Assembly: GCA_033762295.1 (NCBI GenBank)
Contig: JANRLW010000018.1
Span: 1 to 64,000, forward strand
DNA: 64,000 nt
Direction of reading: 5' to 3'
From: Capsulimonadales bacterium
GTDB taxonomy: Bacteria > Armatimonadota > Armatimonadia > Armatimonadales > Armatimonadaceae
Below the pieces are notes generated by a model, which was given only the letters and a program-made list of their open reading frames with translations, was not told the DNA's origin and made no database searches. This document shows positions 1-50,690 of the stretch, one piece after another (the first letter of the stretch is position 1; each line of letters begins with the position of its first letter). Made by a program: the position numbers and the translations under genes.

Positions 1-246
1 GGCCCGTCCACGCTGGGCAAGATCCCAGATGGTGGGTATCAACGCCAGGATACCGATGGTCATCTGCAGGACGACCGGAGAGGATACCCAGGGTCCGAAC
101 CGAAAGAGTATCGCCGCCATTGCCAGACACCACGCCCCTCCACGGGACAGACTGACGGCCTCCGGCAACTCAAACGTATCCCCCCAGGCGATCGAGAAAG
201 TCAACGTCGCCAGGGACAGCAAGGAGTACAACATCACTCTAGACAT
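1..246 (-). CDS. N-terminal part of a membrane protein, runs off window edge; probably DUF3488/transglutaminase-like partner of DUF58
   Basis: Manual translation from ATG at 246: MSRVMLYSLLSLATLTFSIAWGDTF...LQMTIGILALIPTIWDLAQRGR, hydrophobic and open to the edge; overlaps the DUF58 stop. Product inferred from context only. Confidence 0.55.
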   Translation of the reverse strand, partial: MSRVMLYSLLSLATLTFSIAWGDTFELPEAVSLSRGGAWCLAMAAILFRFGPWVSSPVVLQMTIGILALIPTIWDLAQRGRA

Positions 247-1483
247 GCTGTTTCACACCTCTGCCGTCGTTATGCCGGATTCGCACCCGCCCGGTTCGCG
301 GCACGGCGCCATCGGAGGATGTCGTACCGCGGACCGACCGAGGACGAGTTTTCCTGACCGGACACGCATCGAACGTCTCCGTGTCCGCCGTCTCCCTATC
401 GGCGACCAGAGTCAGCGATCCCCGGTTCGAAGGAAGGGACGCGGAGGTGGTGACCACGACCGTCAGAGTTTCCAGGGAGACAGGCACGCTTTCGTTCTCG
501 ATGCCGTCGGGGCGGTCGGCCCTGATCGGCGGTGCCGGGGTCAACGGAAGACGGGCAAGGGCGTCCCGTAATGCCCGGGACGGTCCGGCATAATGGCTCG
601 TATTCCGGTCCCGGACGGTCAAGGAAATCCGCGCGCCACGACGCTCCCACTCCATCGCCAGACTTCCCGCCAGACGAATCGCCTTTTCCCGGGGCGACTC
701 CGGACCGGCATCCGCTCCGGTCAGGTCGAGAAACAGCCGAAAACTCGGAGACCGCATGGCATGACGCTCGACGACAATCAACCGTTCATGCCGAGCGGAC
801 TGCCCCCAGTGAACACGCCGCAGTGAATCCCCGCGCCGGAAGTCGCGAGTGCCCAGTAGATCCCCCTCATATCCGGCTCTTCGGCTCTCAACCGCCCCTT
901 CCTGCATCCCCTCCCGGAGAGCCTCCGGAACCTCGGGGGTCGAAACACGGCGTGGCCAGACGAGAAGTTCGCCCCGGGTTTCCAATCGGCACCGGGCATG
1001 GATCAACCCGAAAGGAAATCCGCAAATGGCCCGGGGGGGTTCCGACGGATACTGGCCTCGTAGCAGCCCGGTCAGTTCCCTGGAAAACTCCGTCTCCCCT
1101 TTCGGTACGGTGAGCGGTAGATCCGGTTCGGTTTCCCCTACGGGGTCCGTGCCGGTCGGGGCGATTCCCGCCAGACGAAGGCCCCAGACCGGCATCCAGC
1201 CGCGGTTCAGAATACGGACGTGAACATGGACCGTTTCTCCTTCCTCCCGACGGGACGCATCGAACCGAACCGTCCCGGAGAGACCACGGACAGCCAGTAT
1301 CGGATAGACAATTCCGAGTAACAGCAGCGCGGCGATGGCCAGGGATAATGCGAATCCCCGAGGATCGACGAAGGCGCCGCACAGGGTTGTGATACACAGA
1401 CCGATAATCAGAGCGCCCAGAGGGCCGGTAATCGCTTGAACGATCCGCTCAGAGGGAGCGTGTTTTAGGTAAGGGTAAGCCAT
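239..1483 (-). CDS. DUF58 family protein with N-terminal TM helices
   Basis: Motifs 'RGQY...GFPFGL', 'LLVWPR', 'GDLLGTRDFRRGDSLRRVHWGQSARHERLIVVE'. Confidence 0.85.
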   Translation of the reverse strand: MAYPYLKHAPSERIVQAITGPLGALIIGLCITTLCGAFVDPRGFALSLAIAALLLLGIVYPILAVRGLSGTVRFDASRREEGETVHVHVRILNRGWMPVWGLRLAGIAPTGTDPVGETEPDLPLTVPKGETEFSRELTGLLRGQYPSEPPRAICGFPFGLIHARCRLETRGELLVWPRRVSTPEVPEALREGMQEGAVESRRAGYEGDLLGTRDFRRGDSLRRVHWGQSARHERLIVVERHAMRSPSFRLFLDLTGADAGPESPREKAIRLAGSLAMEWERRGARISLTVRDRNTSHYAGPSRALRDALARLPLTPAPPIRADRPDGIENESVPVSLETLTVVVTTSASLPSNRGSLTLVADRETADTETFDACPVRKTRPRSVRGTTSSDGAVPRTGRVRIRHNDGRGVKQHV

Positions 1484-2360
1484 AGATTTTTAATGTCCTT
1501 ACTCCCGATGCACACGGCGCATTGATTTCGATACAGCGACGAGACCACCGGATCGCCTCTTCGCGACGATTCGTTTTGCGCAGGGCCATAATGAACTCAT
1601 TCCAGGTCTGGGAGACTTCTATATCGTCAATCAACTGTTGACGTTGGGTACGGTCCGTCCCGCCCCCCTTCGCCGCTCGGCGTTCCAGAATCTCCACTGC
1701 CTTGCGCAGGTGGACGAGGGCTTCCTCCGGTTGCCCTTTATTGGCCAGCAGATAGTGACCGTAGCTCTTCTGCAATCGGAACGATCCGGGATTGTTCGCG
1801 ATGCCCTCGGCCAGAAACTCGAGCGCCCGGTCCACATTCCGGTCCTTCGCGGCACAGAAGACCAGATAGGAGCCCATGTCGTACCCCTCAACGAAGTGCG
1901 GATCGGTCCAGGTCATCATTCGAAACAGCGGCAACGCCTCCGCGAGGTCGCGATGCCCATGGCGACGGATATCCATCCACGGTTGCGCTCCCCGTTCGAT
2001 ATCCCCCCAGAACGACCGCGGGTCATACTCCGACTCCGGCACGACGCTGGTCTCCTGGGAACCGTGATGATCTTCCAGGCTGTCCCCATGCGCGGCGACA
2101 CGTTTACCCTTCTGCACCTCCGACTCCGTCGCGGCGCGAAAGACGACTCCGCCGTGCATGTACTCGTGCGCCCTTCCGTAAAGGTATGAGGCGAGCGAGG
2201 TTCGAAACTCGCCCAGAATGGACGTCGTCGGTTTCTCCTCGTACACCTCTTCCGCTCCTTCCGTATCGGGTTGCCTGAGCATTTCGGGCAGGGCGGCGCG
2301 GAGTAAAAAACCGTTCAGAGCCAATAAGGCGACAGCCGGTATGGCGAAATAAAGTTTCAT
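1449..2360 (-). CDS. Membrane-anchored His-rich TPR-like protein (paralog of 7035..7988)
   Basis: N-terminal hydrophobic helix; 'HEYMHGG', 'HGDSLEDHH', 'RHGHRD'; 'DPHFVEGY'; 'ALEFLAEGIANNP' TPR-like helices. Confidence 0.75.
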   Translation of the reverse strand: MKLYFAIPAVALLALNGFLLRAALPEMLRQPDTEGAEEVYEEKPTTSILGEFRTSLASYLYGRAHEYMHGGVVFRAATESEVQKGKRVAAHGDSLEDHHGSQETSVVPESEYDPRSFWGDIERGAQPWMDIRRHGHRDLAEALPLFRMMTWTDPHFVEGYDMGSYLVFCAAKDRNVDRALEFLAEGIANNPGSFRLQKSYGHYLLANKGQPEEALVHLRKAVEILERRAAKGGGTDRTQRQQLIDDIEVSQTWNEFIMALRKTNRREEAIRWSRRCIEINAPCASGVRTLKIYGLPLPKTRSL

Positions 2361-2381
2361 GGATTCGTTGTCTCCGTTTTG

Positions 2382-3161
2382 CTAAAGAGCCATCTTCTCG
2401 AACCGATTGAGAGCCAACTTCAGCCAGAAGGCGCTAATGGCAATACCGTAGACGGTCAGAGCCAGCGGAATCCACCAGGCGATCGGGTCCCAGCCGTAAA
2501 CGACCTTCCGAGCAATATCGAAGAGCGTAAAGTGTGGCAGGAAGCCGTAAAGGATCGCGATCAGCCAGTTGAGAATCGGAACTCCGTCGCCGTAGGCCAG
2601 AAGAAACGATCGGGTGAACGCGCCCGATCCCAGAGCCAGCAACAACCCGAGCGTGAACGCTGCGGACGACGACACATAAACGGAAAGACAGATGCAAATG
2701 GCGGATAACCAGAGAAAGGACACGGCTTTCAGCCAGATATACTGGATCAGAATGACCTTGAGGGGCAGGCGGAGTAACGTCAGCACCAGCAGTGAGACTC
2801 CGAGCAAGAGGGCGAAGGAGGCCAGGGTGAGCACCCAGGACGCGACGAACTTGCCGGTCAGCAGTTGGGCGCGGGAGATGGGACGGGCAAGAAGCGGATA
2901 GATCGTCCGACGGGAAATCTCTTCCGGAATCTGGCGGGTCGCGATGGTCACCCCCAGGATCGTGGAAAAAAGCCCGACGGCGGTAAACGCCATATCCTTG
3001 ACAAAAATCTCGAGGCCGCTGACACCGAAGAAGGTAAAGGAGTACGCTCCCACCACCATCAGCACCGTCAGAATGACCAGGACATAGAGTTCCTTGCGGC
3101 GTACCATTTCCAGAAAACTGCCACGGATCAGGGTGCGCCAGACACGTAACGTAGGCGTCAT
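2382..3161 (-). CDS. ABC-2 type transporter permease (PilI/NosY-like)
   Basis: About 6 TM helices; 'IPEEISRRTIYPLLARPISRAQLLTGKF' signature. Confidence 0.88.
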   Translation of the reverse strand: MTPTLRVWRTLIRGSFLEMVRRKELYVLVILTVLMVVGAYSFTFFGVSGLEIFVKDMAFTAVGLFSTILGVTIATRQIPEEISRRTIYPLLARPISRAQLLTGKFVASWVLTLASFALLLGVSLLVLTLLRLPLKVILIQYIWLKAVSFLWLSAICICLSVYVSSSAAFTLGLLLALGSGAFTRSFLLAYGDGVPILNWLIAILYGFLPHFTLFDIARKVVYGWDPIAWWIPLALTVYGIAISAFWLKLALNRFEKMAL

Positions 3162-3982
3162 ACTACCGCCTCCTTTCTTTCGGTCTCCGTCCGAGTATCC
3201 TCCGAGGTGTCATTGTTACGATTCGATTCCGGCGCGGTCCGATGGAGCGAATCGCCTCCGGTTTCGACCAGAGTTACAAAGTAGTCCTCAAGCGAGGAGA
3301 CTTGTTTCACCAGGTCCGACACGCGGTGCTCGGCGATGAGTTTTCCCTTGTTCAGCACGATCACCCGGTCGCAGACGGTTTCCACTTCGGATAACTGGTG
3401 TGACGAGAAAAAGATCGTGGTCCCCCGGTCGCGCTCCTCATTCAAAATAACCCGGAGGTCCCGTCGTCCGATGGGGTCGAGACCCGACGAAACCTCATCG
3501 AGAATCAACAGGCGCGGGGTTGCCAGCAACGCCTGAGCGATACCCACACGCTGTTGCATTCCCTTGGATAAAGTCCGATTGAGAACATGCTCCTTGCCGC
3601 TCAGTCCGACGCGAATCAGCAGTTCGCCGATCCGATCCTTCAGAGCGTTGCCTTCCATTCCGTGGAGTTCGCCGTAGAAGGTCAGGGTTTCAAACGGGGT
3701 GAGATAGGGCGAGTAGAGAGCCGTCTCCGGCAAAAAACCGACCCGGCTCCGGGCATCCGCCTCCTGCACAGGAACATCAAACAGGGTGGCCTGTCCGGAG
3801 ACAGCGGTTTGAAAGCCCATCAGCGCCTTGATCGTGGATGTCTTCCCGGCCCCGTTCACTCCGAGGAATCCGACAATTTCCCCGGGACGAACATGGAACG
3901 ACACTCCGTCCACGGCGCGGAACGTCTCGCTCCGCGTCGTCGGGTAGGTGACGGTCAGGTTTTCGACTGCGATGGCGTACAT
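3158..3982 (-). CDS. ABC transporter ATP-binding protein
   Basis: Walker A GVNGAGKTS, signature LSKGMQQR, Walker B LILDE, H-loop SSH. Confidence 0.95.
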   Translation of the reverse strand: MYAIAVENLTVTYPTTRSETFRAVDGVSFHVRPGEIVGFLGVNGAGKTSTIKALMGFQTAVSGQATLFDVPVQEADARSRVGFLPETALYSPYLTPFETLTFYGELHGMEGNALKDRIGELLIRVGLSGKEHVLNRTLSKGMQQRVGIAQALLATPRLLILDEVSSGLDPIGRRDLRVILNEERDRGTTIFFSSHQLSEVETVCDRVIVLNKGKLIAEHRVSDLVKQVSSLEDYFVTLVETGGDSLHRTAPESNRNNDTSEDTRTETERKEAVV

Positions 3983-4357
3983 AAAAAATACAAAACCTCC
4001 CCGTTCGGCCGACCCGGCTTATTCGGGGCAAATCGGCTCCGGAACGTCGTAACGATGGAATAGTCGATGGATGACAAACGAACTTCGCGTTTTACCGGCA
4101 GCCGGCGGCGCCAAGGGTCTTCCCGGTCGAAATTTCGACCCGAACGTAACCGGTTCGTCCGAACGGTTCGTTACGGACGGTTCGTTACGGACGGACAACG
4201 CGATTTCGATACGGTGAGACGACTGGAGGCGTGTTTTACCGGGAACTCAGGTAGAGAGAGGCTTCGCCCGGTGCGGATGGCGAACAGGGTTCGACGTTAC
4301 AGAGGCGAACGATCAGGGTTCGGCTACCTGCCCGCATCCGGCAAAGCGAACGAGTAT

Positions 4358-4729
4358 TCAGGCGAGGGGTGGCGCGCGTGCGGAAGTGTTCAGGAAGAGA
4401 ACGGACGGAGCGTCGGCGTGCGGCAGACACCAGTGCAGAACGAAAGTCTGTGTGATCGGGGGTTGCGGACGACCGGGCGACTCCATAGAGGCATTCAGGA
4501 GCAAGAGTTCGCAGAATGGGCACGAATCGGACGCGCCTTCCGCTGTTCCGCCTACCGACAGGGACGTACCGTCTGCCGATTCACCGGAAACGCAGGTGAC
4601 TGCGGCAACCGGATGCTCATGGGCTCGGTAGTGCAGCGTTTCTCCTACGGTGTGCAGAAAAAACAACACAAAGCCAAGCAAAAGTGCCGCTCGCTCCCGT
4701 ATTCGATTGTCACGAAAGTACCTGTTCAC
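4358..4729 (-). CDS. DUF2946/CruR-like leader protein (TM-His, CxxC, C-terminal RAPP)
   Basis: 'AALLLGFVLFFLHTVGETLHYRAHEH', 'CPFC', ends 'SARAPPLA*'; GTG at 4729 follows GGAG (alternative TTG at 4750). Confidence 0.75.
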   Translation of the reverse strand: MNRYFRDNRIRERAALLLGFVLFFLHTVGETLHYRAHEHPVAAVTCVSGESADGTSLSVGGTAEGASDSCPFCELLLLNASMESPGRPQPPITQTFVLHWCLPHADAPSVLFLNTSARAPPLA

Positions 4730-4745
4730 TATCGCCCGACTCCAC

Positions 4746-4791
4746 TGCAACTATTGCAACTATTGCAATTCACCATGGTATTATTCCATGG
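4746..4791. promoter_or_regulatory. Putative metalloregulator operator in promoter region: (TGCAACTAT)x2 + TGCAATT and CCATGG-N7-CCATGG
   Basis: TTGCAA-CTA-TTGCAA palindrome at 4754-4768 in an AT-rich intergenic region just upstream of the leader ORF. Confidence 0.5.
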
Positions 4792-4886
4792 ATTTCCGTT
4801 TATTTCCAATATTTTTCGTCACTTTATCCATTTATTCCGGCCGCTCCCCGATCGGCCCGGAGGACTACAGGGAGCGGCCAGGATCG

Positions 4887-6194
4887 TCAACCGCGGACGC
4901 AGTAGAGGTGGATGCCGGTCCGCAGGAACAATGTGCCTTCGACCGCGGCCGCTCCGTAGAGAACCGGATCGATGTTTCCCATCGCCGCCCCGCGTGATCC
5001 TGCCGGACGATTTTTCGGTGTATAGTCCTCGGACGGCGAGAGATTCTCGTCGGGAGACCAGAGCGTATTCTCGCCGATTTTTTCAAATTTCGGGCCGGTT
5101 CTGATCTGCGAGACGACCCCGTTCTTCCCGAAGAAATAGACCCGGTCGCCTACCCCGATCGGAGATCCCCAGCAGATTCCGCCGATCCGTTCCGCATACC
5201 GCTCCTCGCCGGTCATCGCATCCAGACAGTAAAGAATACCGGCGGCGGTGACATAGTAGGCGTGTCCCCGGAAGACGAACGGACTCATAAAGTCGGTCGT
5301 CGCCTTTTTGGCTTCCCAGAGCGGAACGATCTCCGGACGATCCTTCTCCGTCGTGAACCGGAAACAGGCGTTGGATCCCTGCGGCGTACGTCCTCCCGGT
5401 CTCGCCAGATCGCGCTGCGCCGTGGTCGCGCCGATATACAGGCGATCCTCATCCACGAACGGAGAGGACATGATATTTCCCGTGTAGCCCGGAAGGCGCT
5501 TCCATAACGTGCCGGTGACGGCATCGTAGGCGTCCACGGCACCGTTGGAACTCACAATCACGAGTTCCCGTCCGCCCATTTCGACGCAGATCGGACTCGT
5601 CCAGCTTTTGCGCGGCTCCCGATCGGTTTTCCAGCGGGTCTTTCCGGTTCGTCGGTCCAGAGCCAGCAGGTACGACGGCCCCTGATGATCGACCAGTACG
5701 ACGACGGCATCGCGGGTCAGGGTCGGAGAACCGCCCAGACCGTACTCGTTGACCAATGGTCCGTATTCCCGTACCAGCGAGCGCTTCCAGGCGATACGGC
5801 CATCTTTGGGCGAAAGGCGCACAATGTCGCCGCTCTCAAACGAGCAGTAGAGTCCGTCCTGATCCAGGCAGGGAGTCGGTGCGGCCCGGCTCACCAGGTA
5901 ATGGCTCTCGGTCGGAAACGTGGAAGCGATCTGCTGGCTCCAGAGCAACCGCCCGTCGCGCGCCGAAAAGGCAAGCGCCAGACAGTCCTCCCGTTGCGCT
6001 CCGCGGACGGCGCTGACGAACACACGGTCGCGCCAGACAACCGGGCAGGATTGGCCGTAACCGGGAAGGCTGACCCGCCACGCAATGCCCCGGGTCGGCG
6101 ACCATCGCTCGGGCAATCGCTTCAGATCGGCATGACCGACTCCGCCGTTGCGGAACGCCGTCCAGCGATCGCCCGGCAGTTTGCGCAGCGTCAC
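4887..6194 (-). CDS. PQQ-like/BamB-like beta-propeller protein
   Basis: Repeated 'ALD..TGK..WK', 'GYGQSCPVVWRDRVFV', 'SSPFV', ends 'LFLRTGIHLYCV'. Confidence 0.85.
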   Translation of the reverse strand: MTLRKLPGDRWTAFRNGGVGHADLKRLPERWSPTRGIAWRVSLPGYGQSCPVVWRDRVFVSAVRGAQREDCLALAFSARDGRLLWSQQIASTFPTESHYLVSRAAPTPCLDQDGLYCSFESGDIVRLSPKDGRIAWKRSLVREYGPLVNEYGLGGSPTLTRDAVVVLVDHQGPSYLLALDRRTGKTRWKTDREPRKSWTSPICVEMGGRELVIVSSNGAVDAYDAVTGTLWKRLPGYTGNIMSSPFVDEDRLYIGATTAQRDLARPGGRTPQGSNACFRFTTEKDRPEIVPLWEAKKATTDFMSPFVFRGHAYYVTAAGILYCLDAMTGEERYAERIGGICWGSPIGVGDRVYFFGKNGVVSQIRTGPKFEKIGENTLWSPDENLSPSEDYTPKNRPAGSRGAAMGNIDPVLYGAAAVEGTLFLRTGIHLYCVRG

Positions 6195-7007
6195 CTACGG
6201 CCGTCCTTTCCCGTTGTAGAACGTGTCGTCGATGACGCCCGTTCCGGCAAGAAAACCAAGCCGGGCGTTCCGAATCACCGCGGCATTGGCGATACCGGTG
6301 GGCGTCCTTACCGAAAACGTCTTGACATGACCGTCCGCAAAGGCGACGTTGGCCTTTTCCAGGTGCCGGGCATGGACCGTCGGAGTGGCTCCGCCCCGGC
6401 TGGAAGGCGGCCAGGCCCAGGGATGGAGAGTGGGACGATTTTCGACCGTGTTCCAGAGGGCGTTGTTGCAGAAAACCAGCATATCCGCCGGCGTCTCGAT
6501 GGCGGCCAGAGCGGCGGGGTTCTGCGTCCATCCCGGTTGCGGTCCGCCCGGGTGGGCGAAGGTTCCGTACCCTCCCAGATAGCAGACATTGTAACCGTAA
6601 TGCACCTTACCCCAGAGGTTGCTGAAGGGCAATCCGGAGGCCGCCGGGTCACCGAGAAGGGACGCATTCTTCAGGTAAGGCCAGAGCAGACCATGCTGTT
6701 CCCCGAGGTCGGGCGCGGAACCGAAGGTCGTGCCCGAACGGACGGCCGCATACCAGTAGACCACACGGGAACCCGCGGTCAGGGACGTTTGCAGTCCGGT
6801 CGGAAGCACCGTTTCATCATAGTCCTGCGCGTACATGAGCCATCCCAGAGCGATCTGCTTCAGGTTGGACAGGTCAGAGGTCTGTCGGGCTTTGGCGCGG
6901 GCCTGAGCGAAGACCGGGAAAAGGATCGCGGCCAGTATCGCGATGATTGCGATGACGACGAGCAACTCGATGAGCGTAAAGCCCCTGCGGGCCGGTGTAT
7001 AAGACAT
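6195..7007 (-). CDS. Prepilin-type N-terminal cleavage/methylation protein, DUF1559-like, with H-X9-DG motif
   Basis: [29 protein letters not shown]; '[15 protein letters not shown]'. Confidence 0.92.
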
Positions 7008-7034
7008 TTTTCGATCCTTTCGGAAGAAGACGGA

Positions 7035-7988
7035 TTAATCGGTTCCATTTTGCGTTTTGAGGAGAGTCACGCCGCTCGTTCCTTTCGGTAGCGGTTCGCC
7101 GACGGACTCCAAATACTTTCGGCACGTGACGTCCTCAGGGAAGTCGGTTAGGCCTTCCAATGCCGCTTGCCGGGCTTTGTACGGTTGTTTCATCTCCCGG
7201 TAGCCAATGACGCGGCGGCGGACGCACTCCTGCCACGCCTCCCGTTCATCGGCAATGAGCGTCTCCGGGTCCCGTGCCCTGGCGATGTGGATGCCTCGCT
7301 CCGCATGACGAACGGCCTCCGCATAGTTATCTTTGCCGTTGAAGTAACTGGCACGCATGTAAAGGTAAGAAAAGGTACTTTGAATCTCGATGCTCTCCGG
7401 GTTGTTGATTTCGCCTTCTCGAATGAATCGGATGGCTTCGTCAAACGCCTTTTCCTGATGGGCAATCATCATGGCTCCGACGGCATAGCCCGGGATGAAG
7501 TGCGGATTGCTCCACGTCATCAGGCGAAACAGGGGAAGGGCCTCTTTCGGGTCTCGATGAGAATGGTTTCGCATATCCAGGTACGGCTTCACGTCCCGCT
7601 CGATATCTCCCAGAACTCCGCGCCAGTCATTTTCTTTGGCAAGTACGATGGTTGTTTCCGTCGCGTGCTGGCGATGGCCTTTCTCCGATTCGTCGCCGGC
7701 ATGACCGATACGTTGCGTCTGTTGATGACGCTTTTCTTCCTCGGTAAGCCCACGCAAATCCACACCGCTATGGAGGTATTTGTCGACCTTCATCCAGAGG
7801 AAGTCCGCCATATTGGAACGGAACTGCCCGAACAAGGAGGCGGCAGCGACCTCCTCCAACTTGGTCTGCTGGGCCTTCGTCATACCGACAGGCGCCGCGA
7901 GGTCCGGTTTGACGATCTGAGCCAGCCGGTGGTTTAACAGAAGACCACCGGTAATCAGCAAAGGGAGGACCACCACAAACATCCTCAT
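7035..7988 (-). CDS. Membrane-anchored His-rich TPR-like protein (paralog of 1449..2360)
   Basis: Start MRMFVVVLPLL, ATG overlapping the permease stop (ATGA); 'YLHSGV', 'GHRQH', 'NHSHRDPKEALPLFRLMTWSNPHF'. Confidence 0.75.
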   Translation of the reverse strand: MRMFVVVLPLLITGGLLLNHRLAQIVKPDLAAPVGMTKAQQTKLEEVAAASLFGQFRSNMADFLWMKVDKYLHSGVDLRGLTEEEKRHQQTQRIGHAGDESEKGHRQHATETTIVLAKENDWRGVLGDIERDVKPYLDMRNHSHRDPKEALPLFRLMTWSNPHFIPGYAVGAMMIAHQEKAFDEAIRFIREGEINNPESIEIQSTFSYLYMRASYFNGKDNYAEAVRHAERGIHIARARDPETLIADEREAWQECVRRRVIGYREMKQPYKARQAALEGLTDFPEDVTCRKYLESVGEPLPKGTSGVTLLKTQNGTD

Positions 7989-8773
7989 AGTGCTTGCCTC
8001 CGAAATCGTATTGCGCCGACCATCAGAAAAATCGCGCTGTGAACGACGGCATAGATCAGGAGCAGCAGGACGGTGGTACCGGAAATCGGTTTCCATCCGT
8101 AACTGACCTTTTTCGAAAGGTCGAACAGGTCCAGTTGCGGCAAGGTGAAGTAGGCGACTTCCAGTCCCTTCCGGACCGCACTGCCAACCGAACCGTGCAA
8201 CATCGTTACGGCGGTGGAGAAGGTTGAGGAACCGATGGCGAGAAGCAAAGCCATCGTGGCGGTCGCCTGCGGCGTGAGAAAAAGCGAGAGGGCGATTGTC
8301 AGCGCGCAGATAATAGCGAGCGAGAAGAACCGCAAGAGCAGGTACTGCCAGAAAATGGCTCCGACGCCAAGGCCAAAATACAGTAAGGCTCCCCATCCGA
8401 TCACGGTAAATGTTAGGAGGGATATCGTGGAAAGAGTTAATGCCCCCAGGAACTTACCGAAAATAAGGTCGAACCGGGTCACCGGGCGAGCCAGTAACGG
8501 ATATATGGTGCGGCGGGAGATCTCCTCGGGCATCTGCCGTGCCGCGAAGAGAACGGCAAGAATTACCGAGAGAATGTTAACAACGGTCAGGGTGACGTCT
8601 TTGAGAAACATCTCCAGGCCACGAACGCCGAAGTGACCGATGACCGATGCCGCGCCAATCATCACTACCGCCAGGATAGCGGCGACCCACAGGTCCTTGC
8701 GTCGGATGGATTCCAGAACCGCCGTATAGGCCAGTGCCCCCCAGACGGTAAGTTTGAAAAGAAAAATGTTCAC
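7985..8773 (-). CDS. ABC-2 type transporter permease
   Basis: Multi-TM; 'MPEEISRRTIYPLLARPVTRFDLIFGKF'. Confidence 0.88.
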   Translation of the reverse strand: MNIFLFKLTVWGALAYTAVLESIRRKDLWVAAILAVVMIGAASVIGHFGVRGLEMFLKDVTLTVVNILSVILAVLFAARQMPEEISRRTIYPLLARPVTRFDLIFGKFLGALTLSTISLLTFTVIGWGALLYFGLGVGAIFWQYLLLRFFSLAIICALTIALSLFLTPQATATMALLLAIGSSTFSTAVTMLHGSVGSAVRKGLEVAYFTLPQLDLFDLSKKVSYGWKPISGTTVLLLLIYAVVHSAIFLMVGAIRFRRQAL

Positions 8774-9564
8774 GGGTTATTTTCCTTTGCGTATTGTTCT
8801 TCGGCCTGCTGGATGGTGGTAATAAAGTAGTTTTCCAGTGCGGACCCGATTCCCTGACGAAACCGGTCATCTACCGGACGTTCATCCTGCTTTCTTCCGC
8901 CGTGAATCAGGATGACCCGGTCGCAGAGTTGTGCAACCTCATCAAGTTCATGGGAGGAGAGAAAGATCGTGGTTCCTCCGGAGCGCACATCCGCCAGTAT
9001 CTCGCGCAGGTGGCGGCGACCGATCGGGTCAACGCCGGAGGTTACCTCATCCAGCACCAGAAGGTCGGGGTTGCCCAGAAGCGCCTGTGCGATTCCCAGG
9101 CGTTGCTGCATCCCTTTGGAAAAAGTACGGAGCGGCTGTTTTTCTTTCCCCCCCAATCCGACCAGATTGAGAAGGCGATAGGACTCGTCTCGGAGAGCCT
9201 TCCCCCCCAGGCGTTGCAGTTTCCCGTAAAGCCAGAGCGTCTCCATCGGCGTCAGGAAAGGGTAGTAGAGAGCGACTTCGGGAAGGTAGCCGATTTTGCT
9301 GTTGGCGGCAGGCGTCCCGGCAGGCTCGTCGAAGACCCGAATCGTTCCGGAATCCGGAGTAAGGAACCCCATAACGGCCTTGATGGTTGAGGATTTTCCT
9401 GCCCCGTTCGGCCCGAGAAACCCAACCACCTCGCCGGCTTGCACCTCCAGGGAGAGGTCCTCCACCACTCGTCGTTTCGGTTTCATCGGCCCCGTCGAAT
9501 AGGAAACGTTGAGGTTGTCGAGCGAAAGTGCCGTTGCCGTTTGCGATCGCATTCCGGTCGTCAT
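8770..9564 (-). CDS. ABC transporter ATP-binding protein
   Basis: GPNGAGKSS, FSKGMQQR, LVLDE, SSH; start uncertain (9564 or 9552). Confidence 0.93.
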   Translation of the reverse strand: MTTGMRSQTATALSLDNLNVSYSTGPMKPKRRVVEDLSLEVQAGEVVGFLGPNGAGKSSTIKAVMGFLTPDSGTIRVFDEPAGTPAANSKIGYLPEVALYYPFLTPMETLWLYGKLQRLGGKALRDESYRLLNLVGLGGKEKQPLRTFSKGMQQRLGIAQALLGNPDLLVLDEVTSGVDPIGRRHLREILADVRSGGTTIFLSSHELDEVAQLCDRVILIHGGRKQDERPVDDRFRQGIGSALENYFITTIQQAEEQYAKENNP

Positions 9565-9720
9565 AAAGAATTCCGACAACCGACCGGAATTCGCCGGTGA
9601 AACCGCATCGGTACCATCAGGTGCATAACAGCCGGACATTTCCGTTCCTTTTCGAGCGATACGAGAGAGTGGGTTCAAGTGAACCGATGGAGATACGTTG
9701 CCGTCGCAGGTCGCAGGGTA

Positions 9721-9749
9721 TCCCGTGGAGGCGGACAGCCTCCACGGGA
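9721..9749. other. Strong intergenic hairpin between the PEP-CTERM gene and the ABC module
   Basis: tcccgtggaggc-ggaca-gcctccacggga, 12-bp perfect stem, no U-tract. Confidence 0.55.
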
Positions 9750-9798
9750 CACCGGACAATCCGTGACATCGGTCGATGTCAGCGGACATCGGATGACA

Positions 9799-10656
9799 TT
9801 AACCGACTTGCTTTCGTCGTCGGGCGACTACCGCACCGACCAGTCCGAGGCCGAGCAAAGCGAACGTTCCGGGTTCCGGAGCCGCCGCCTGCAACAGGGT
9901 GGTCCCCACCCCGAACGTATAGGTCACCAGTCCGCTGGTGGACGGTCCGCCGTCCGTCGGCGTTCCGATCGCCTCGATCGTCACCTCATAAATCCCGGCC
10001 GACGAGAAGCCGAAATTGTAGTGGTCGTGCGCCCCGACCGAGACATTGATCAGGTCGGTGTTGTCGAAGCCGTTGTTGCTCTGCCAGAGAACGCTGATCC
10101 CGCCCAGAGACCCCGGCTGCCAGACGGCGAAATTTCCGATGGTCGATCCTCCGACAACCGGCGTAAATTCCAGATTACGCAGGAATAGTTGAATACCGCC
10201 CGAAAAGTCGCCCGGAGCATTCTCCTCCGCGCCAATCCCTACCCAGGAGATGTTGTCGTCTGCCGGGTTGGCGTTGCTCTGCGGATTCCCCTGCGGAATC
10301 AGAAAGATTTCGTCCCCGGAATTGACCCCCAGAAACGCCAGCGCCGCGGGAGTGGTAACCCGCGCGCCGTCTCCGACATAGATCAACGCGTCCTCCGGAG
10401 CGTATTCGTCGTCGAACCCGGCGGGCGCCGGATCGAGATGAATGTGCAGATCCCAGGAGCCGGGGCTGCCGACGGAGCCGGTCTCATAGGCAACGCCGAT
10501 ATCCAGGTGGGTGAAGATGTCGGCATTGCTGATCGGGTCCTTACCGAGGACGGTGTAGCCGGGGTTGAGCTGGGCCTGCGCGGCAGACGAGAGTAGAGCG
10601 AGCGTGGCAAGCGCCGTCAGTCGGATGGCGTGTTGCCGGGATAGTTGCGAGAACAT
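9799..10656 (-). CDS. PEP-CTERM surface protein with choice-of-anchor M (TIGR03769-like) domain
   Basis: Signal peptide AQA; 'HLDIG', 'LHIH', 'AFLG..SGDEIFLIPQ', 'WVGIGAE', 'GAHDHYNFGFSSAGIYEVT'; C-terminal APEPGTFALLGLGLVGAVVARRRK. Confidence 0.85.
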   Translation of the reverse strand: MFSQLSRQHAIRLTALATLALLSSAAQAQLNPGYTVLGKDPISNADIFTHLDIGVAYETGSVGSPGSWDLHIHLDPAPAGFDDEYAPEDALIYVGDGARVTTPAALAFLGVNSGDEIFLIPQGNPQSNANPADDNISWVGIGAEENAPGDFSGGIQLFLRNLEFTPVVGGSTIGNFAVWQPGSLGGISVLWQSNNGFDNTDLINVSVGAHDHYNFGFSSAGIYEVTIEAIGTPTDGGPSTSGLVTYTFGVGTTLLQAAAPEPGTFALLGLGLVGAVVARRRKQVG

Positions 10657-10783
10657 GGTCTTTCCTCCGTTTTCCAAAAGCATCCGTCAGGTCAAAAGAG
10701 ACGATCGCAATTTTGCGACTTTTGAGATGGTTACAAGTGCGACTCCGCCAATCGAGCCGATCTCTCGACGATCTCTCGACGAT

Positions 10784-11548
10784 CTACAGGGGCGGTTTGG
10801 CGAAGTTGAATCCGGAATCCGACCAGCCTTTGATTCGGGCGGCGGGAATCGCTTTGACGTGCGTATCGCAGTACAGATAGTTCGCAACACCGCCGCGTTC
10901 GGGAGCGTTCCCGGACTGACCGTGTCGATCCACTTCTATCTCCGATGTGATGAAACGCCATCGGGCCACCGGGTCCCGATAGCCGAACCAGGCCGCGCTG
11001 TGAACGTGGTCCCAGTAGGTATCGCGCGGTTTGGCATCGCTCAGTTCGAAGAGGAGAAATGTTTCCGAAGGCCGTGGCACCTGATCGAGGCTCGTGATGA
11101 TATCCGGAGAGGCGATAATCGCGCCCGTGAACGGGTCCCGTGACTTGATCGCGACATACTCGTTCATGACATAGCTGGTTCCGTTGAATCCGCGTACCTC
11201 CTGCCCGCGCAGATCGCTCGGACACAGGCGAATGGCATGCACGTTGGCGACATAAGGAGCCAGAGCCAGAACCCAGACCACCGGTTGCCCCCGGTAGTCA
11301 TGCGCGGTACGAGGTAATTCTCCATCGAAATCATCACTGTACATTCGAAGGGCGATACCGATCTGCCGCATGTTGCTCACACAGGAGGTCTGTCGCCCCT
11401 TCTCCCGTGCCGCCGCGAAGGTGGGTAACAGAATCGCGGCCAGTATCGCGATTATGGCGATGACGACGAGCAGTTCGATCAGCGTGAATCCGCCCGTTGT
11501 CGCCGGTCGGACCGTCCGGATCGATCCGACGGTTGCATATGGTCTCAT
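10784..11548 (-). CDS. Prepilin-type/DUF1559-like protein
   Basis: [25 protein letters not shown]; 'CVSNMRQIG'; '[10 protein letters not shown]'; '[11 protein letters not shown]'. Confidence 0.9.
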
Positions 11549-11584
11549 GACCGACCTCTTTCGTTCCTTTCGTTGAAGACGCAT

Positions 11585-12109
11585 TTATCGCCCGCCCTTC
11601 TTTTCCGTCTGATGGGCGACTTTGTCGAACGCATGGATCGCTTTGTCGAGGGATTCCATCTCCGTGTCCAGGGCGTGCATCCGCTTATCGAGCGTCGCCG
11701 CCTGCGCCTGACGCTGCTTCGCATTCATCCGGTGATACGCCTTGTCGAACGCATGAAACTCGCGATCGATCCGGTGAAACCGGGCGTCGAGCGAATGAAA
11801 GGCTTTGTCCTGCCCGGAGGATTTCGGGTTCTTCCGGTCGTAGACTTTGTCCATCGCATGGAACGACTTTTCCGTTCGATGGAACCGCTGTTCGAGTCGG
11901 TGGAACGATTTATCGAGCGCGGCGGCAGAAAGGCGGGACGGTTGCCGGTGGTACGCCTGATCGGCCTTATGGAAGTCGGCATCTTCCTTATGCAGGGTTT
12001 TATCTCCCTGATGGAAGGTCTTGTCACCGGGCGTCTGCGCCACGACGGACATCGGCGACCCGATAAGGGTCGTCGCCAAAAGCATCAGCCAGGCCGACTT
12101 GATGGTCAT
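11585..12109 (-). CDS. Secreted His/Asp heptad-repeat helical protein, unknown family
   Basis: SD AAGGAG; signal peptide ending VVA|Q; 16 heptads approximating D/E-x-x-F-H-x-x, 14 His. Confidence 0.8.
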   Translation of the reverse strand: MTIKSAWLMLLATTLIGSPMSVVAQTPGDKTFHQGDKTLHKEDADFHKADQAYHRQPSRLSAAALDKSFHRLEQRFHRTEKSFHAMDKVYDRKNPKSSGQDKAFHSLDARFHRIDREFHAFDKAYHRMNAKQRQAQAATLDKRMHALDTEMESLDKAIHAFDKVAHQTEKKGGR

Positions 12110-12358
12110 CGGTTACTCCTTATGCAAAATGATTGAAAAATAGTGCGGTTGACGGAGACAGGTACTGTGCGACCCACTTCCGGCGGGTTCCGGTCCGCCG
12201 CCCTTCCGATCGCCCCCGTCCGGGCCGTCGCCCGATGCCGTCGCCGGCAGAAGCGGGATCGAACGCCGTTAAGGAAGGTCGTATGTGTCGGAAAGACGGA
12301 CTGCGTCAGGAACGCTCAATAAGGAAGGTTGGCAGGACAGGGGAACGCAGGAAGGCGT

Positions 12359-12802
12359 TCAGGCGAGGGCGGGAGGGCCACGAGAGGCGGAGTGACGGAC
12401 GAGCGTCCGCAGACAGGGGAGGAAGGCGGCGAACGGAGCGGAGTCCGTCAGGAACGCGGTCACCGCAGCCGTCAGGGTAACGACGGCGACAACCGCCAGC
12501 AACGCTTCGAGTTCGCAGACCCAGCAGGCATGCGGAGCGGACAACACTTCCGTTATCGGGGAGAGAGCGGAGGCGGGAGAAACCACCCCTGCCGTTCCGT
12601 CGGATGCCGCAACCGGGCTTTCGTGAACCGACCGGTCTTGCCGGTCCGTTCGGGAATGCGTCGGTGCGGTCCGTCCCGGAAGTTCATGCGTCAGACCGTG
12701 GAAGATCGCGCCGGTGACATGCATCCCGAGGAGCAACAGTCCCATAAGAAGAGACAGTCGCCCCCGAAATTGAGATCGCAAATTGGTCCGGCCTGTGGTC
12801 AC
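12359..12802 (-). CDS. DUF2946/CruR-like leader protein (TM-His, CxxC, C-terminal RGPP)
   Basis: 'LSLLMGLLLLGMHVTGAIFHGLTHE', 'HACWVC', ends 'SASRGPPALA*'; GTG lies 6 nt after TATAAT. Confidence 0.75.
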   Translation of the reverse strand: MTTGRTNLRSQFRGRLSLLMGLLLLGMHVTGAIFHGLTHELPGRTAPTHSRTDRQDRSVHESPVAASDGTAGVVSPASALSPITEVLSAPHACWVCELEALLAVVAVVTLTAAVTAFLTDSAPFAAFLPCLRTLVRHSASRGPPALA

Positions 12803-12808
12803 ATTTGT

Positions 12809-12849
12809 ATTATAGCCATGGGGCGTCAAAATCTGCAACTGATTTTCCA
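12809..12849 (-). promoter_or_regulatory. Sigma70-like promoter (TTGCAG-N18-TATAAT) overlapped by a possible Fur/Zur-like box
   Basis: Minus strand: TGGAAAATCAGTTGCAG...TATAAT-acaaat-GTG. Confidence 0.55.
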
Positions 12850-12901
12850 TAAGCGGGAGAAGGGGCCGAGGGGGAAGGGACGGCGGAAAAAGAGGGGGAA
12901 A

Positions 12902-12973
12902 AGCGGGAGACGGGACTCGAACCCGCGACATTCTGCTTGGGAAGCAGACGCTCTACCACTGAACTACTCCCGC
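12902..12973 (-). tRNA. tRNA-Gly (CCC), 3' CCA not encoded
   Basis: GCGGGAGTAGTTCAGTGGTAGAGCGTCTGCTTCCCAAGCAGAATGTCGCGGGTTCGAGTCCCGTCTCCCGCT; cloverleaf with anticodon loop TTCCCAA. Confidence 0.96.
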
Positions 12974-13040: not shown

Positions 13041-13820
13041 TTACCCGCGCAGCAACGGGGTCAGGTCGAATTCGTAGACCGTGCGCTCCCGACGCTGAAT
13101 CTGGAACAGGCGGCGCGTCCGGGCATCGATCGCCAGGCCCTGCCCCTCCGCCGGCGATTTGACGATCTTCAGCAGTTCGAGCACCGTGCCCGCACGCGGC
13201 AGACGGAAGATATAGAACTCCGGCGCATGGTGGGTCGTGACATACAGCACCGGGCGCGGATACCAGGAACCGCCCGGCCCCCAGACGCCGCCCGACGCCG
13301 TCATGCCGTCCCAGCGCGCCGTGACCAGATCGGGCGGGAAAGAGTACGCGCCCTGCTTGCGCCACTCCCGGTCGTAACGCACCAGTGTCGTCAACGTGTT
13401 CGGTTTGCCCGGTTCGCCCCCGCGACCGTTGTAGTGACCGAAACAGATCCACCAGCTGTTGTCGTGCCAGTCCACCCAGACCATCGAACCGGCATCGTGA
13501 CCGAAACTGTGGCTCCGGATGTGCCGGAGCGACCCGCAGTCGTAGATCTCCACCGAACTGAGCATCGGAACGTCGGGGAAGTTGGAGTGGGAACAGTACA
13601 GTTTCCCACCCAGCGTCATCCCGCCATCCATATGAATCAGGGGAATCTCCGGCGTGCTCTTGAACGCGCCGACCTTACGTCCGGTGTTCCGCTCGTACTT
13701 GCCGATGGCGGTATTGTTGATCGCGTAGAAGTAACGGTCGTCGACCGCCACCCCCTGGATCGCCTCCTCCGCGCGAAATTTCGCGACCAACGGCAGTTCC
13801 GGCGTCAGTTCCTGTCTCAC
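13041..13820 (-). CDS. Conserved hypothetical protein, probable beta-propeller
   Basis: 'QGVAVD', 'LYCSHSNFP', 'SGGVWGP', 'GQGLAID'; coding-like bias. Confidence 0.7.
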   Translation of the reverse strand: MRQELTPELPLVAKFRAEEAIQGVAVDDRYFYAINNTAIGKYERNTGRKVGAFKSTPEIPLIHMDGGMTLGGKLYCSHSNFPDVPMLSSVEIYDCGSLRHIRSHSFGHDAGSMVWVDWHDNSWWICFGHYNGRGGEPGKPNTLTTLVRYDREWRKQGAYSFPPDLVTARWDGMTASGGVWGPGGSWYPRPVLYVTTHHAPEFYIFRLPRAGTVLELLKIVKSPAEGQGLAIDARTRRLFQIQRRERTVYEFDLTPLLRG

Positions 13821-13849
13821 CGCGATTCCCCCGATCCTTTCCTCACCGA

Positions 13850-14785
13850 TTACGGATAGACGACGCCGCCGATCTGCGGATTCCAGAGATCCTTCTGACC
13901 GGAGCTGCAGTTGAAGTTCTCGAAGTTCGGCACGCAGACGTTTTCCCAGACCTGCGGATTGACAACCGCGAACTCGTCATCGATATCGCGCGTCCAGGTG
14001 GAACCCGGCCGCATCGCCTTCACATGACCGTCGCAGAAGAGGAACGTGGAAACCGTGCGCCCGGAGTGCAGACCGACCGGGAATCCGATCGTGAACGGCG
14101 GGCGGCTGGAGGTTCCGGCGGTACGGCGGTGAAGCGGCGCGCCGTTCCGGTTGGTCGCGCCGGCGTTCGCCGCGTCGGTGCGCTGCGATCCTTCGTACAG
14201 CAGGATCAGGCTGGCCGGTTCCGGCGTCAGGTCGGTATTGATTCCGGATGCGAAGCTGTCCGGCTGGACCGGCGTCGGGTTGACCACGTTGGTGACGTAG
14301 GTGCCCGGATGGGTCGCCCGGAGGTAGTCGTTCATGATGAACGAGCGCTGGCGGTCGACGCCCGGCACGGCCACGCCGAGGTTGGTACCGGTGAACGGAA
14401 GCGCCGACGGACAGGAGTACATATTGGCCGCCGAACTGACCCGGTCGCTCGAACGGACATACGGGAAGATACCGCCCGCCGCAACCGTCGCGGAGCCGCC
14501 CTGGATCCAGCCGGTCTGCGGGTTGCCACCGCTCTGGATATTGGTGCCGCCGCCGGGGCAGGGGAAGACGCCGTCATAGTCGGTCGCATACATCAGGAAC
14601 GCCAGGCCCAGCTGCTTCTGGTTGGACGTACAGGTCGCCTGCCGCGCCTTCTCACGAGCCTGGGCGAATACCGGGAAAAGAATGGCCGCCAGAATGGCGA
14701 TGATCGCGATTACCACGAGCAACTCGATCAACGTAAAGCCGGAGCTTACCCGCAGGGTAAATCCGCGAACGGAGGAACGAATCAT
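13850..14785 (-). CDS. Prepilin-type/DUF1559-like protein
   Basis: [34 protein letters not shown]; 'FLFCDGHVK'. Confidence 0.92.
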
Positions 14786-39471: not shown

Positions 39472-39512
39472 CGGTAGGAAAAACCCGCGATATACTGCGA
39501 CAGGCACGAACG

Positions 39513-39941
39513 ATGAAACCTAACGCGACCGGTCGGATGACCGCTTTCGGAAAAAACGCGTCGAACCTTCCCGGTCTGGTACGACGTCGGTTTTCTCGTC
39601 TCGCCCTGCCGCTGGCTCTTCTCTATGCTCTGCTGTTCGTCGGCATGACCTGGCACCCGCACGAGCAAAACGGAGTCGGAACCGGGGGAACGGTTTCATC
39701 GTACGCCTGCGCTCCGGTCGGTACGTCCCAACAGACGGAGGTACAATCCTCCCATGGCGTGCGAACGGGCTGTCCGGTCTGTGACTTTCTCATCCAACCG
39801 GTTCAACAGGCCGGCGTCCCGGAGCGTGCCTCCGAACCGCTCCTGGTTTTCTTCGATGCGCCGGTTGCCGAACGGCCCCTGCCCTACCTCCCCTATCGCT
39901 TCTGCGATCGCTCCGTCTCCCGCGGTCCTCCGGTTTCGTAG
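39513..39941 (+). CDS. DUF2946/CruR-like leader protein (TM-His, CxxC, C-terminal RGPP)
   Basis: 'LALPLALLYALLFVGMTWHPHE', 'GCPVC', ends 'VSRGPPVS*'; start 39513 or 39537. Confidence 0.75.
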   Translation: MKPNATGRMTAFGKNASNLPGLVRRRFSRLALPLALLYALLFVGMTWHPHEQNGVGTGGTVSSYACAPVGTSQQTEVQSSHGVRTGCPVCDFLIQPVQQAGVPERASEPLLVFFDAPVAERPLPYLPYRFCDRSVSRGPPVS

Positions 39942-40167
39942 TCCTCTTTCCGCCCGCCGGGTAAACGTCCTTCCGTCCTTGAAGGCGTTCCCGAACGGTT
40001 CTCACCTCCGGCGCAGGCCCCTTCCGGCCCGTTTTCTGAGCGTCGAACCGGACGGACCGGCGTCCTGACACTTCTCCTGCCAACCTCTCGCGGCGCGTTC
40101 GACGGCCCTCTTCCGTTCGTGCGAGACGGTTCGCAGCCAGCGACTACGATTCCGGAGATAGATATTT

Positions 40168-50649: not shown

Positions 50650-50690
50650 AGTATCGTATTTTACGGCGTTCGGCGGCCACGTCGCAAAGT

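Follow-up and report, generated by a model that had tools for sequence, protein, structure and literature searches.

CruR/CutF-like leader peptides precede DUF1559 prepilin and choice-of-anchor-M genes in a member of the Armatimonadota

Leader-gated copper operons are known, and the closest described to the locus reported here are cruR-crtA(bfrG)-bp2921 of Bordetella pertussis, with its receptor CrtA (PMC9426467; PMC12914433), and cutFOG of Rhodobacter capsulatus together with the CutF-like proteins (PMC9973294; bioRxiv 10.1101/2025.02.05.636593). In CruR, a CxxC is followed after 45 residues by an RAPP motif, which stands three residues before the end of the peptide and ahead of an intergenic region of 162 nt (PMC9426467). 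Here we describe a 64,000-nt stretch from a Capsulimonadales bacterium (GCA_033762295.1, contig JANRLW010000018.1, positions 1-64,000; hereafter the window), in which three CruR/CutF-like leaders head genes for DUF1559 prepilins, for a choice-of-anchor-M protein with a PEP-CTERM tail (anchor-M protein), for ABC-2/TPR systems and for a HupE/UreJ-like permease. What appears new relative to the known operons is the DUF1559 prepilin/anchor-M cargo, and its mechanism could be new as well.

Leader peptides and their cargo across Armatimonadota

Full leader architecture was defined as a hydrophobic N-terminus, a CxxC and R-A/G-P-P just ahead of the stop codon. A six-frame scan of the window and of the 5.16-Mb assembly found exactly three open reading frames (ORFs) of this kind, all inside the window: 323 frames of the assembly end in R[AG]P[PG] near the stop, seven of these were at least 60 residues long with a CxxC, and three of the seven are the leaders. 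A profile search of the same genome likewise returned three leader matches. Leader 1 (12359-12850, minus strand) carries its CxxC at 12515-12526 and RGPP at 12371-12382, ahead of the stop at 12359; leader 2 (4358-4750, minus strand) has CxxC at 4511-4522 and RAPP at 4367-4378; and leader 3 (39468-39941, plus strand) has CxxC at 39771-39782 and RGPP at 39921-39932. From leader 1 to leader 3, 44, 44 and 46 residues separate the CxxC from R[AG]PP, three, two and two residues follow the PP, and the next gene begins after spacers of 249 nt (12110-12358), 375 nt (3983-4357) and 226 nt (39942-40167). The interval between CxxC and arrest motif is 42-46 residues in the leaders of 15 relatives, and among 18 aligned leaders the CxxC is invariant and flanked by an invariant His. 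A hydrophobic N-terminal stretch is visible in every leader, with start codons that are uncertain; that of leader 1 is so because the longest ORF (ATG at 12931) begins inside a tRNA-Gly gene, which puts the true start further downstream; a promoter-like TTGCAG-18-TATAAT lies after the next in-frame ATG (12850). By their CxxC, spacing, R[AG]PP, long spacers and DUF2946-like family matches, the leaders are indeed CruR/CutF-like, in line with the CxxC/RAPP leader-peptide control that had been proposed from the sequence of the window before any database search (the sequence-only reading).

The 5' ends of the spacers are C-rich and G-poor, the first ~90 nt behind leader 1 being rut-like and the spacer behind leader 3 likewise C-rich, and no significant hairpin was found over the Shine-Dalgarno sequences of the cargo genes behind the three leaders (z -0.5 to +0.6). 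In composition and in the lack of such a hairpin the spacers look more like that of CruR, with its Rho-dependent attenuation, than like that of CutF, with its stem-loop melting. The CxxC-to-RAPP spacing was considered as a discriminator between CruR and CutF and rejected, as it is 45 residues in both.

To see what such leaders head elsewhere, we searched 401 Armatimonadota genomes with a profile of 18 leaders and obtained matches in 87 of them (L-numbers below denote loci from other genomes, f8 and f11 families among the relatives, and C-numbers contigs of the genome under study). Other genomes contributed 113 leader matches, of which nine were partial and four stood at the ends of contigs; the remaining 100 were followed into their downstream DNA, a second regex match in L219 being excluded, and with the three leaders of the window the census comprises 103 leaders. 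The first cargo was an ExbB/ExbD/TonB/TonB-dependent receptor set in 66, an unknown outer-membrane-like protein with ZnuA and an ABC importer in 12, a DUF1559 prepilin followed by one or more anchor-M proteins in eight, another DUF1559 prepilin in five and a YHS/TRASH-like protein in five, two of which are followed by a prepilin. The remaining leaders head OEP/HlyD_D23/CusA-CzcA-type RND genes (three), ABC-2/TPR/DUF58 genes (two), HupE (one) and a MacB-type ABC protein (one). All these counts come from classing the cargo by BLAST to Pfam-annotated examples rather than by an ORF-by-ORF scan, and are taken over related genomes that are not independent observations.

A prepilin is among the first genes behind 16 of the 103 leaders, against about 4 expected from how densely prepilin N-termini lie in the genome under study (131 per 5.16 Mb; for the same strand and within 3 kb). 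The same leader family heads receptors at 66 loci and DUF1559 prepilins at 16, and the proposal that prepilins stand in the position of the TonB receptor is borne out. One genome, G394, has similar leader peptides at the head of both a receptor operon and a prepilin-anchor-M operon. In the genome under study, a genome-wide search brought up neither a leader-gated receptor nor any ZnuA homologue.

The census also brought up proteins of note among the relatives. The ~390-residue protein that precedes the ZnuA-type ABC importers behind leaders at 12 loci in six families (L101:1866-3047 plus 11 others) is matched by neither Pfam nor NCBIfam; it carries a signal peptide and may reside in the outer membrane. 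In another family, a small His-repeat protein akin to that encoded at 11585-12109 of the window follows leader-gated TonB-dependent receptors (L163, L177, L189, L194, L209). An ABC-2-like permease stands behind it in L163, L177 and L209, with a large secreted protein next in L177 and L209 and a ZIP transporter intervening in L163; L170, L183 and L208 have the permease without the His-repeat protein.

A conserved prepilin and anchor-M pair and its second regulator

Although the genome holds 131 DUF1559 prepilin copies by N-terminus count, those linked to leaders belong to three orthologous clades, A, B and D, which span at least five families and whose members share 42-88% identity, measured over the head domains only. 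Clade A consists of the gene at 10784-11548 (minus strand) in the leader-1 unit, a gene of L103 and six genes of family f8. Clade B unites the gene at 6195-7007 (minus strand) with those of L098 and L180 (73-85% identity); a propeller gene always follows, and in L098 and L180 a leader and a YHS-like gene precede. Clade D, the prepilin behind leader 3 (41427-42215, plus strand), has orthologues in L157 and L166 at 61-76% and in L200 at 42% identity. The His motifs are clade-specific and conserved, with H83, D180-H181, R208-H209 and H230 invariant in clade A, and THHD and DYHPW motifs in the clade-D protein. In the window, the prepilins of all three clades match the DUF1559 region and the N-terminal methylation motif above the Pfam cut-offs, and the H-X9-DG domain is matched in the clade-B protein only (25.5 bits, cut-off 19).

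Behind the clade-A gene lies that of the anchor-M protein (9799-10656, minus strand), which matches NF038134 with 70.2 bits (cut-off 55) and the PEP-CTERM family PF07589 with 30.4 bits (cut-off 20.7), and in which D52 and H210 are invariant and H212 nearly so. A reverse search starting from this protein detected homologues in 30 of the 401 genomes. Of 20 loci retrieved anew, 16 had a prepilin no more than two genes away from the anchor-M gene, and those prepilins were of clade A; overall, a prepilin adjoins the anchor-M gene at 24 of 28 loci. In other families, clade A and D orthologues adjoin anchor-M genes, a clade-D prepilin sharing the cluster with clade A and anchor-M in L225, L230 and L231. 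Since A, D and anchor-M are clustered in relatives, the leader-1 and leader-3 units represent one conserved system that is split in this genome, and its conserved core consists of prepilin A and the anchor-M protein, frequently joined by prepilin D. The genome has its own pseudopilus machinery, comprising nine T2SSE ATPase genes, three secretins and one prepilin peptidase.

We then modelled the pseudopilin A head (residues 48-254, 8-row alignment) together with the anchor-M domain (residues 30-256, 18 rows). The complex scored 0.74, a level that 116 of 157 solved complexes vs 2 of 215 mismatched pairs attained, and the best control 0.09; the runs share at least 86% of contacts, and the predicted local distance difference test (pLDDT) value of the partner was at least 86. 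Residues listed at the predicted interface are H83, W179 and H183 on the pilin side and H50, H210 and H212 on the partner side. Of these, H83 and H210 are invariant and H212 nearly so, one of the eight clade-A sequences has Glu in place of H183, and H50 is outside the invariant list of the anchor-M protein, on which D52, two residues on, does stand. These models support binding of pseudopilin A to the anchor-M protein and predict that conserved histidines of both proteins lie in or beside the contact. The anchor-M protein modelled alone reached a pLDDT of 81.9; in a wide VIA-align search with it the highest Z, 6.2, fell on cupredoxin-like domains and fimbrial adhesins and within the noise zone, and no fold was assigned.

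The anchor-M loci of family f11 are leaderless and carry instead a CsoR-family gene and ATACCC-n-GGGGTAT inverted repeats. CsoR (PF02583) was matched with E values of 6e-25 in L230, 2e-25 in L231 and 5e-21 in L226, and operators of the CsoR type were matched by regex in L223, L226, L231, L034 and L060. In L226 and L228, the CsoR gene and an operator are found at the divergent promoter that also serves the prepilin operon, the L228 CsoR gene being called by tBLASTn only. Read by eye from the alignment, the ligand spacing of these proteins is C-25-H-4-C, which we take to mark a copper-type CsoR. The genome under study has a csoR of its own on contig C16 (4207-4598), with three 17-bp operators at its flanks that are close to perfect (ATAC-C/T-CC-nnn-GGGGTAT); its left-hand neighbour probably encodes a copper pump. 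The window itself has no CsoR-type operator, since only matches with three mismatches were found there, six against 5.6 expected by chance.

Metal-related genes surround the same modules in relatives. A YHS/TRASH-like protein and a Cys-rich, four-helix-like protein of 115 residues are encoded in L103. The 12.2-kb contig of L026, from the same family as the genome under study, forms a metal island with a trio-2 orthologue (see below), MerC-like, PhoX, DUF1559 prepilin and PepSY_TM genes and a ZigA-like GTPase gene (588 bits, cut-off 600), followed by a leader, a YHS/TRASH-like protein, prepilin B and the propeller. The case for a link to metal homeostasis is strong, being supported both by two unrelated regulators and by a metal neighbourhood that is consistent. 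The link to copper, for its part, would rest on the leaders and CsoR as two independent, unrelated regulators, and copper is most likely the metal concerned.

Gene order and accessory modules

The co-oriented minus-strand row occupies positions 1-12,931 of the window and is bounded by a tRNA-Gly(CCC) gene (12902-12973, minus strand) directly upstream of leader 1; the remainder of the window consists of housekeeping genes. ORF calls, translations, Pfam and NCBIfam confirmed the labels, and the gene content and order that had been read from the sequence hold throughout. Behind leader 1 and its spacer come a secreted His-heptad repeat protein (11585-12109; D/E-K/R-x-F/Y-H every seven residues, with 14 His in 174 residues and 9 of 13 His spacings of exactly seven), prepilin A and the anchor-M gene. 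After a gap of 234 nt they are followed by a first ABC-2/TPR trio in this order, here called trio 2, of a DrrA/GldA/NodI-like ABC ATPase (8770-9564), an ABC-2 permease (7985-8773) and a membrane-anchored TPR protein (7035-7988; Pfam and family alignment), then by the clade-B H-X9-DG prepilin and its partner, a PQQ_2/BamB-like beta-propeller (4887-6194). The trio-2 ORFs 7035-8396 and 8770-9789 as called are too long, overrunning upstream neighbours or gaps, and translation probably begins close to 7988 and 9564. Leader 2 heads trio 1, with ATPase (3158-3982), permease (2382-3161; 40% identical to that of trio 2) and TPR protein (1449-2360; 35% identical), then a DUF58 gene (239-1483), which is kept behind trio 1 in relatives, and a small membrane ORF cut by the edge of the window (1-246), all on the minus strand. 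In both trios the ABC_tran ATPase and ABC2_membrane permease matches exceed the Pfam cut-offs. That a third leader heads HupE/UreJ and a prepilin with THHD was also confirmed: the HupE_UreJ_2 membrane protein (40168-41340, plus strand; PF13795, 135.5 bits vs a cut-off of 24.5) has an N-terminal periplasmic domain and precedes the clade-D prepilin. HupE/UreJ behind a CutF-like leader is an already recognised class (PMC9973294).

The complete 12.8-kb order is not conserved in Armatimonadota relatives, as gene-neighbourhood comparison showed, contrary to what the sequence-only reading had expected. As a unit the cluster stands in part: the prepilin-anchor-M pair is conserved and predicted to bind, and the whole order is a mosaic of three to four modules. 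Nor does the sequence-only reading hold for the ABC-2/TPR trios. A search with the TPR protein family found 68 loci, nearly all labelled Armatimonadota, with permease and TPR genes adjacent in all 68 and an ATPase gene seen in 60, so that the trio is a phylum-wide module; most of these loci are leaderless and rarely beside a pilin. A third, leaderless trio lies on contig C46 of the same genome (~3.4-6.1 kb), adjoined by a 1831-residue ORF and a lipoyl-synthase-like gene. The closest copy in this genome is the C46 trio for 55 of the 68 loci, trio 2 for nine and trio 1 for four, which makes both trios of the window additional paralogues specific to the lineage. Directly behind a leader, trio 1 with DUF58 recurs in three further species (L001-L003), whose leaders were found with a relaxed pattern allowing longer tails.

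The TPR proteins, described earlier as His-rich, proved to be so only mildly (3.3% and 3.8% vs a baseline of 2.5%), with two His conserved across 69 family members. An AlphaFold2 model of the trio-1 protein (pLDDT 85.4) consists of a membrane anchor and generic TPR repeats, and a fold search for a specific relative returned generic TPR proteins only, the look-alikes being TPR clusters of Armatimonadota, Verrucomicrobiota and Elusimicrobiota. PilGHI resemble ABC transporters (PMC6060248), and an NCBIfam scan of the window proteins gave no PilGHI-type match. CsoR genes adjoin the generic trio at 4 of the 68 loci, and in L034 and L060 CsoR-type operators stand directly before the trio ATPase gene. 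At these two loci an AmiC-type cell-wall amidase gene lies with csoR and operators directly upstream of the trio (L034:5926-8204; L060:1-2054), a neighbourhood which hints that the trio may act in the envelope under copper control.

Several features of the row and its flanks may be recorded here. A GC-rich hairpin of ~11 pairs (~9715-9755, minus strand) in the gap between the anchor-M gene and the trio-2 ATPase may be a terminator or attenuator that parts the leader-1 core from the downstream genes. In the AT-rich interval between propeller and leader 2 (4751-4886, minus strand), a promoter-like TTGGAA-18-AATAAT site (4780-4809, minus strand; a consensus match only) has its predicted -10 region covered by an inverted repeat, CCATGG-7-CCATGG, and three repeats of the TTGCA(A/G)T type follow one another in tandem. 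These elements may constitute an operator, for which leaders 1 and 3 showed no counterpart in their upstream regions. An operator common to all three leaders was considered and dropped, their upstream regions sharing short 8-mers only, and a promoter/terminator scan of the window gave counts that were overall at chance level. Upstream of the tRNA gene, 13041-14785 (minus strand) encodes a 259-residue protein without family match and a DUF1559 prepilin (13850-14785) that falls outside all leader-linked clades. An AAA_35 protein with a cyclase-like N-terminal domain (44113-45783, minus strand) and a separate ABC-2 transporter pair beside a DUF2141 protein and a sigma-70 region 2/4 (ECF-type) sigma-factor gene (48725-51758, minus strand) appear unrelated to the leader units.

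Direction of the response and comparison with known systems

Based on these findings, we hypothesize that the three leader-gated transcription units encode one copper-responsive envelope apparatus. Each leader would be a short exported peptide in which the invariant His and CxxC could serve as a metal site; in the CruR mode, a ribosome stalled at R[AG]PP would shield the C-rich spacer from Rho and so let transcription reach the cargo, and binding of metal, most likely copper, to the nascent peptide would alter the stall. The core cargo would be the DUF1559 pseudopilins A and D and the PEP-CTERM-anchored anchor-M protein, to which this genome would add, as accessories, the His-heptad protein, the HupE/UreJ-like permease, the clade-B pseudopilin with its propeller and the two ABC-2/TPR paralogues, one of them with DUF58. 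The units, on this hypothesis, would be on at low copper, capturing copper at the surface and passing it inward, from the place where relatives have leader-gated TonB-dependent receptor or ZnuA-type operons.

That the units are switched on under copper scarcity, for capture and uptake, is the reading that we prefer, if only tentatively. It draws support from the census, in which 78 of the 103 leaders gate importers of the TonB/receptor or ZnuA type. A HupE-type permease as cargo together with CruR-like spacers, the separate csoR system for copper excess, with its three operators and none in the window, and the want of a leader-gated receptor or ZnuA in this genome would each favour the low-copper direction, and the T2SSE ATPases, secretins and prepilin peptidase of the genome would suit capture at low copper. 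More doubtful still is a bolder form of it, in which a pilus machine would drive the metal capture, a short pseudopilus presenting at the cell surface a His-lined tip complex that binds copper or a copper chelate and carries it across the outer layers, as an alternative to TonB-dependent receptors; we think this unlikely. Were it true, the DUF1559 expansions in Armatimonadota, Planctomycetota and Verrucomicrobiota would be families of ligand-specific uptake pseudopilins.

Several observations, beside the limits of the census, weigh against copper capture under scarcity. With a Pfam cut-off of 23.7 for DUF2946 (PF11162), leader 2 scores 21.2 bits, leader 1 14.8 bits and leader 3 has no match, so that they are classed as DUF2946-like and not as curated members (11 of the 18 aligned Armatimonadota leaders match DUF2946 at E<=0.1, the best at 1.2e-7). 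CusA/CzcA-type RND pumps lie behind 3 of the 103 like leaders. CsoR-type repressors are released by their ligand, so that excess copper would be expected to induce the f11 orthologues, which suggests defence or sequestration. Zinc signals, namely AztC-like ZnuA, ZIP and the ZigA-like GTPase, occur in the cargo of relatives, and the anchor-M model is without a clear structural relative, Foldseek having returned no match in the PDB at E<=0.001. ABC-2 systems and His-repeat 'sponges' would fit export or buffering equally well as uptake. The zinc-induced czrCBA-zntA operon of Caulobacter begins with a DUF2946 gene (PMC4176598). CutF also has a 45-residue spacing, yet is described as stalling with copper (PMC9973294), and spacing therefore does not fix the direction. 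The earlier proposal of metal-starvation uptake thus survives as to the metal link, made by two regulators; the starvation direction does not find the same support, CsoR control and RND pumps arguing for excess.

Copper-excess induction is accordingly a serious rival, possible but in our estimate on the unlikely side. The modules would be copper-induced by CutF-type logic, metal prolonging the stall, and their products would bind, buffer or export copper: the His-heptad protein as a periplasmic sponge, the pseudopilin and anchor-M protein as a surface sink and the ABC-2/TPR systems as exporters, which ABC-2 systems usually are. Such a defence would agree with family f11, where a CsoR gene and operator occupy the divergent promoter of the prepilin A-anchor-M operon (L226, L228; also L223, L230 and L231), with the CsoR operators before the generic trio in L034 and L060, with the RND pumps and with the description of CutF-like proteins as mostly upstream of Cus/Czc components (PMC9973294). 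It is at odds with the 78 leaders that head import systems and with genome G394, where similar leaders head a receptor operon as well as a prepilin-anchor-M operon, and it would leave the operators of the own csoR located elsewhere and none in the window. HupE/UreJ proteins are known as importers, and long spacers without a Shine-Dalgarno hairpin are CruR-like, not CutF-like.

Zinc, or nickel/cobalt, in place of copper as the metal sensed and handled we consider improbable. Both characterised DUF2946 leaders sense copper, the CsoR genes at the core show the spacing that we take as copper-type, L103 encodes YHS/TRASH-like and Cys-rich four-helix-like proteins, and the AztC and ZigA matches fall under their curated cut-offs. 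These speak against what would otherwise favour the other metals: 12 leaders head ZnuA-type importers with a binding protein closest to AztC, leader loci contain ZIP and a ZigA-like COG0523 GTPase, a HupE/UreJ protein lies behind leader 3, and the leaders have an invariant His next to CxxC. CutF-like proteins are 'not all Cu-specific' (PMC9973294) and an actinobacterial anchored-repeat cluster is Zur-repressed (PMC6711530).

A further alternative, copper-regulated surface remodelling in which copper is a cue for adhesion or matrix attachment and no metal is handled, seems to us quite improbable: PEP-CTERM and dockerin-like tails on anchor-M homologues and weak structural neighbours that include fimbrial adhesins (Z ~5, in the noise zone) are set against conserved His clusters at the predicted interface and the co-occurrence of the core with transporters, the YHS-like protein and the His-repeat protein. 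Chance juxtaposition, by which 131 prepilins would make proximity to a leader meaningless and the cluster no functional unit, could appeal to the unconserved 12.8-kb order and the many ABC-2/TPR loci without a nearby prepilin, but is already disfavoured, and very improbable, given prepilins behind 16 leaders vs about 4 expected, orthologous clades across at least five families and anchor-M pairing at 24 of 28 loci.

If copper capture under scarcity, or any copper-responsive function, is correct, the consequences reach beyond this genome. In Armatimonadota and the Planctomycetota-Verrucomicrobiota-Chlamydiota (PVC) phyla, the DUF1559/H-X9-DG prepilins rank with the largest paralogous families that lack a known function, and we found no characterised member in the literature searched; placing three DUF1559 clades and an anchor-M partner in a copper (metal) regulon makes the family testable. 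It also extends nascent-peptide metal sensing of the CruR/CutF type to a new phylum, in the 87 genomes with leader matches, and to new cargo. DUF1559 prepilins or anchor-M proteins as leader cargo were not found in the literature searched, where papers naming DUF1559 do not by title or abstract concern metals and PMC6711530, brought up by anchor-M terms, deals with zinc regulation rather than with the domain itself; File S1 of Ozturk 2023 may tabulate pilin-type neighbours, and a term search of Table S1 of PMC9426467 found Planctomycetes and not Armatimonadota.

Among known systems, the trios are like Caulobacter znuGHI in being of the ABC-2 type; the latter is Zur-repressed beside a zinc receptor (PMC4176598), showing that ABC-2 systems can belong to metal-starvation regulons. 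With the actinobacterial anchored-repeat cluster (troA-dip0445 of Corynebacterium diphtheriae), whose surface protein genes are reported as Zur-repressed (PMC6711530), the locus shares anchor-M domains, TIGR03769 being matched with 37.9 bits (cut-off 30.9) and TIGR03773 under its cut-off; it differs in having PEP-CTERM where that cluster has a sortase or membrane anchor, and no TroA-type binding protein. As in the tip complexes of type IV pili and type II secretion, a prepilin-type protein is predicted to bind an adjacent non-pilin beta-sandwich surface protein, and assembly ATPases, secretins and a prepilin peptidase are encoded elsewhere in the genome; unlike in those complexes, the locus has no assembly genes and the partner carries a PEP-CTERM anchor. 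Like CsoR-controlled copper operons of the copZA type, the f11 prepilin-anchor-M operon, and the trio at two loci, lie behind a CsoR gene with GC-core inverted-repeat operators, whereas the cargo includes no P-type ATPase or chaperone and the window no operator.

Closer still are the leader-gated systems. With CutF the locus has in common a putative DUF2946-family nascent-peptide metal sensor, the distance between metal site and proline motif being 45 residues in CutF, and neighbours of the HupE/UreJ and RND kinds that are already published for the CutF-like class (PMC9973294). CutF differs in having CxxxC and in melting a stem-loop over the ribosome-binding site of the next gene, where here spacers of 226-375 nt are without a significant hairpin. 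The likeness to the cruR operon extends to an upstream ORF, here with a hydrophobic N-terminus, CxxC, about 45 residues, an RAPP-type motif near the stop and a long intergenic region, to the place of the leader as first gene in an operon for envelope metal proteins, and, in Armatimonadota relatives, to TonB-dependent receptors as cargo and a PepSY_TM gene (L026). The leaders described here depart from CruR in that two of the three carry RGPP and that the Pfam score lies under the cut-off, and the operons depart from cruR-crtA(bfrG)-bp2921 in their cargo, which is no receptor here but DUF1559 pseudopilins, the anchor-M protein, ABC-2/TPR systems and HupE.

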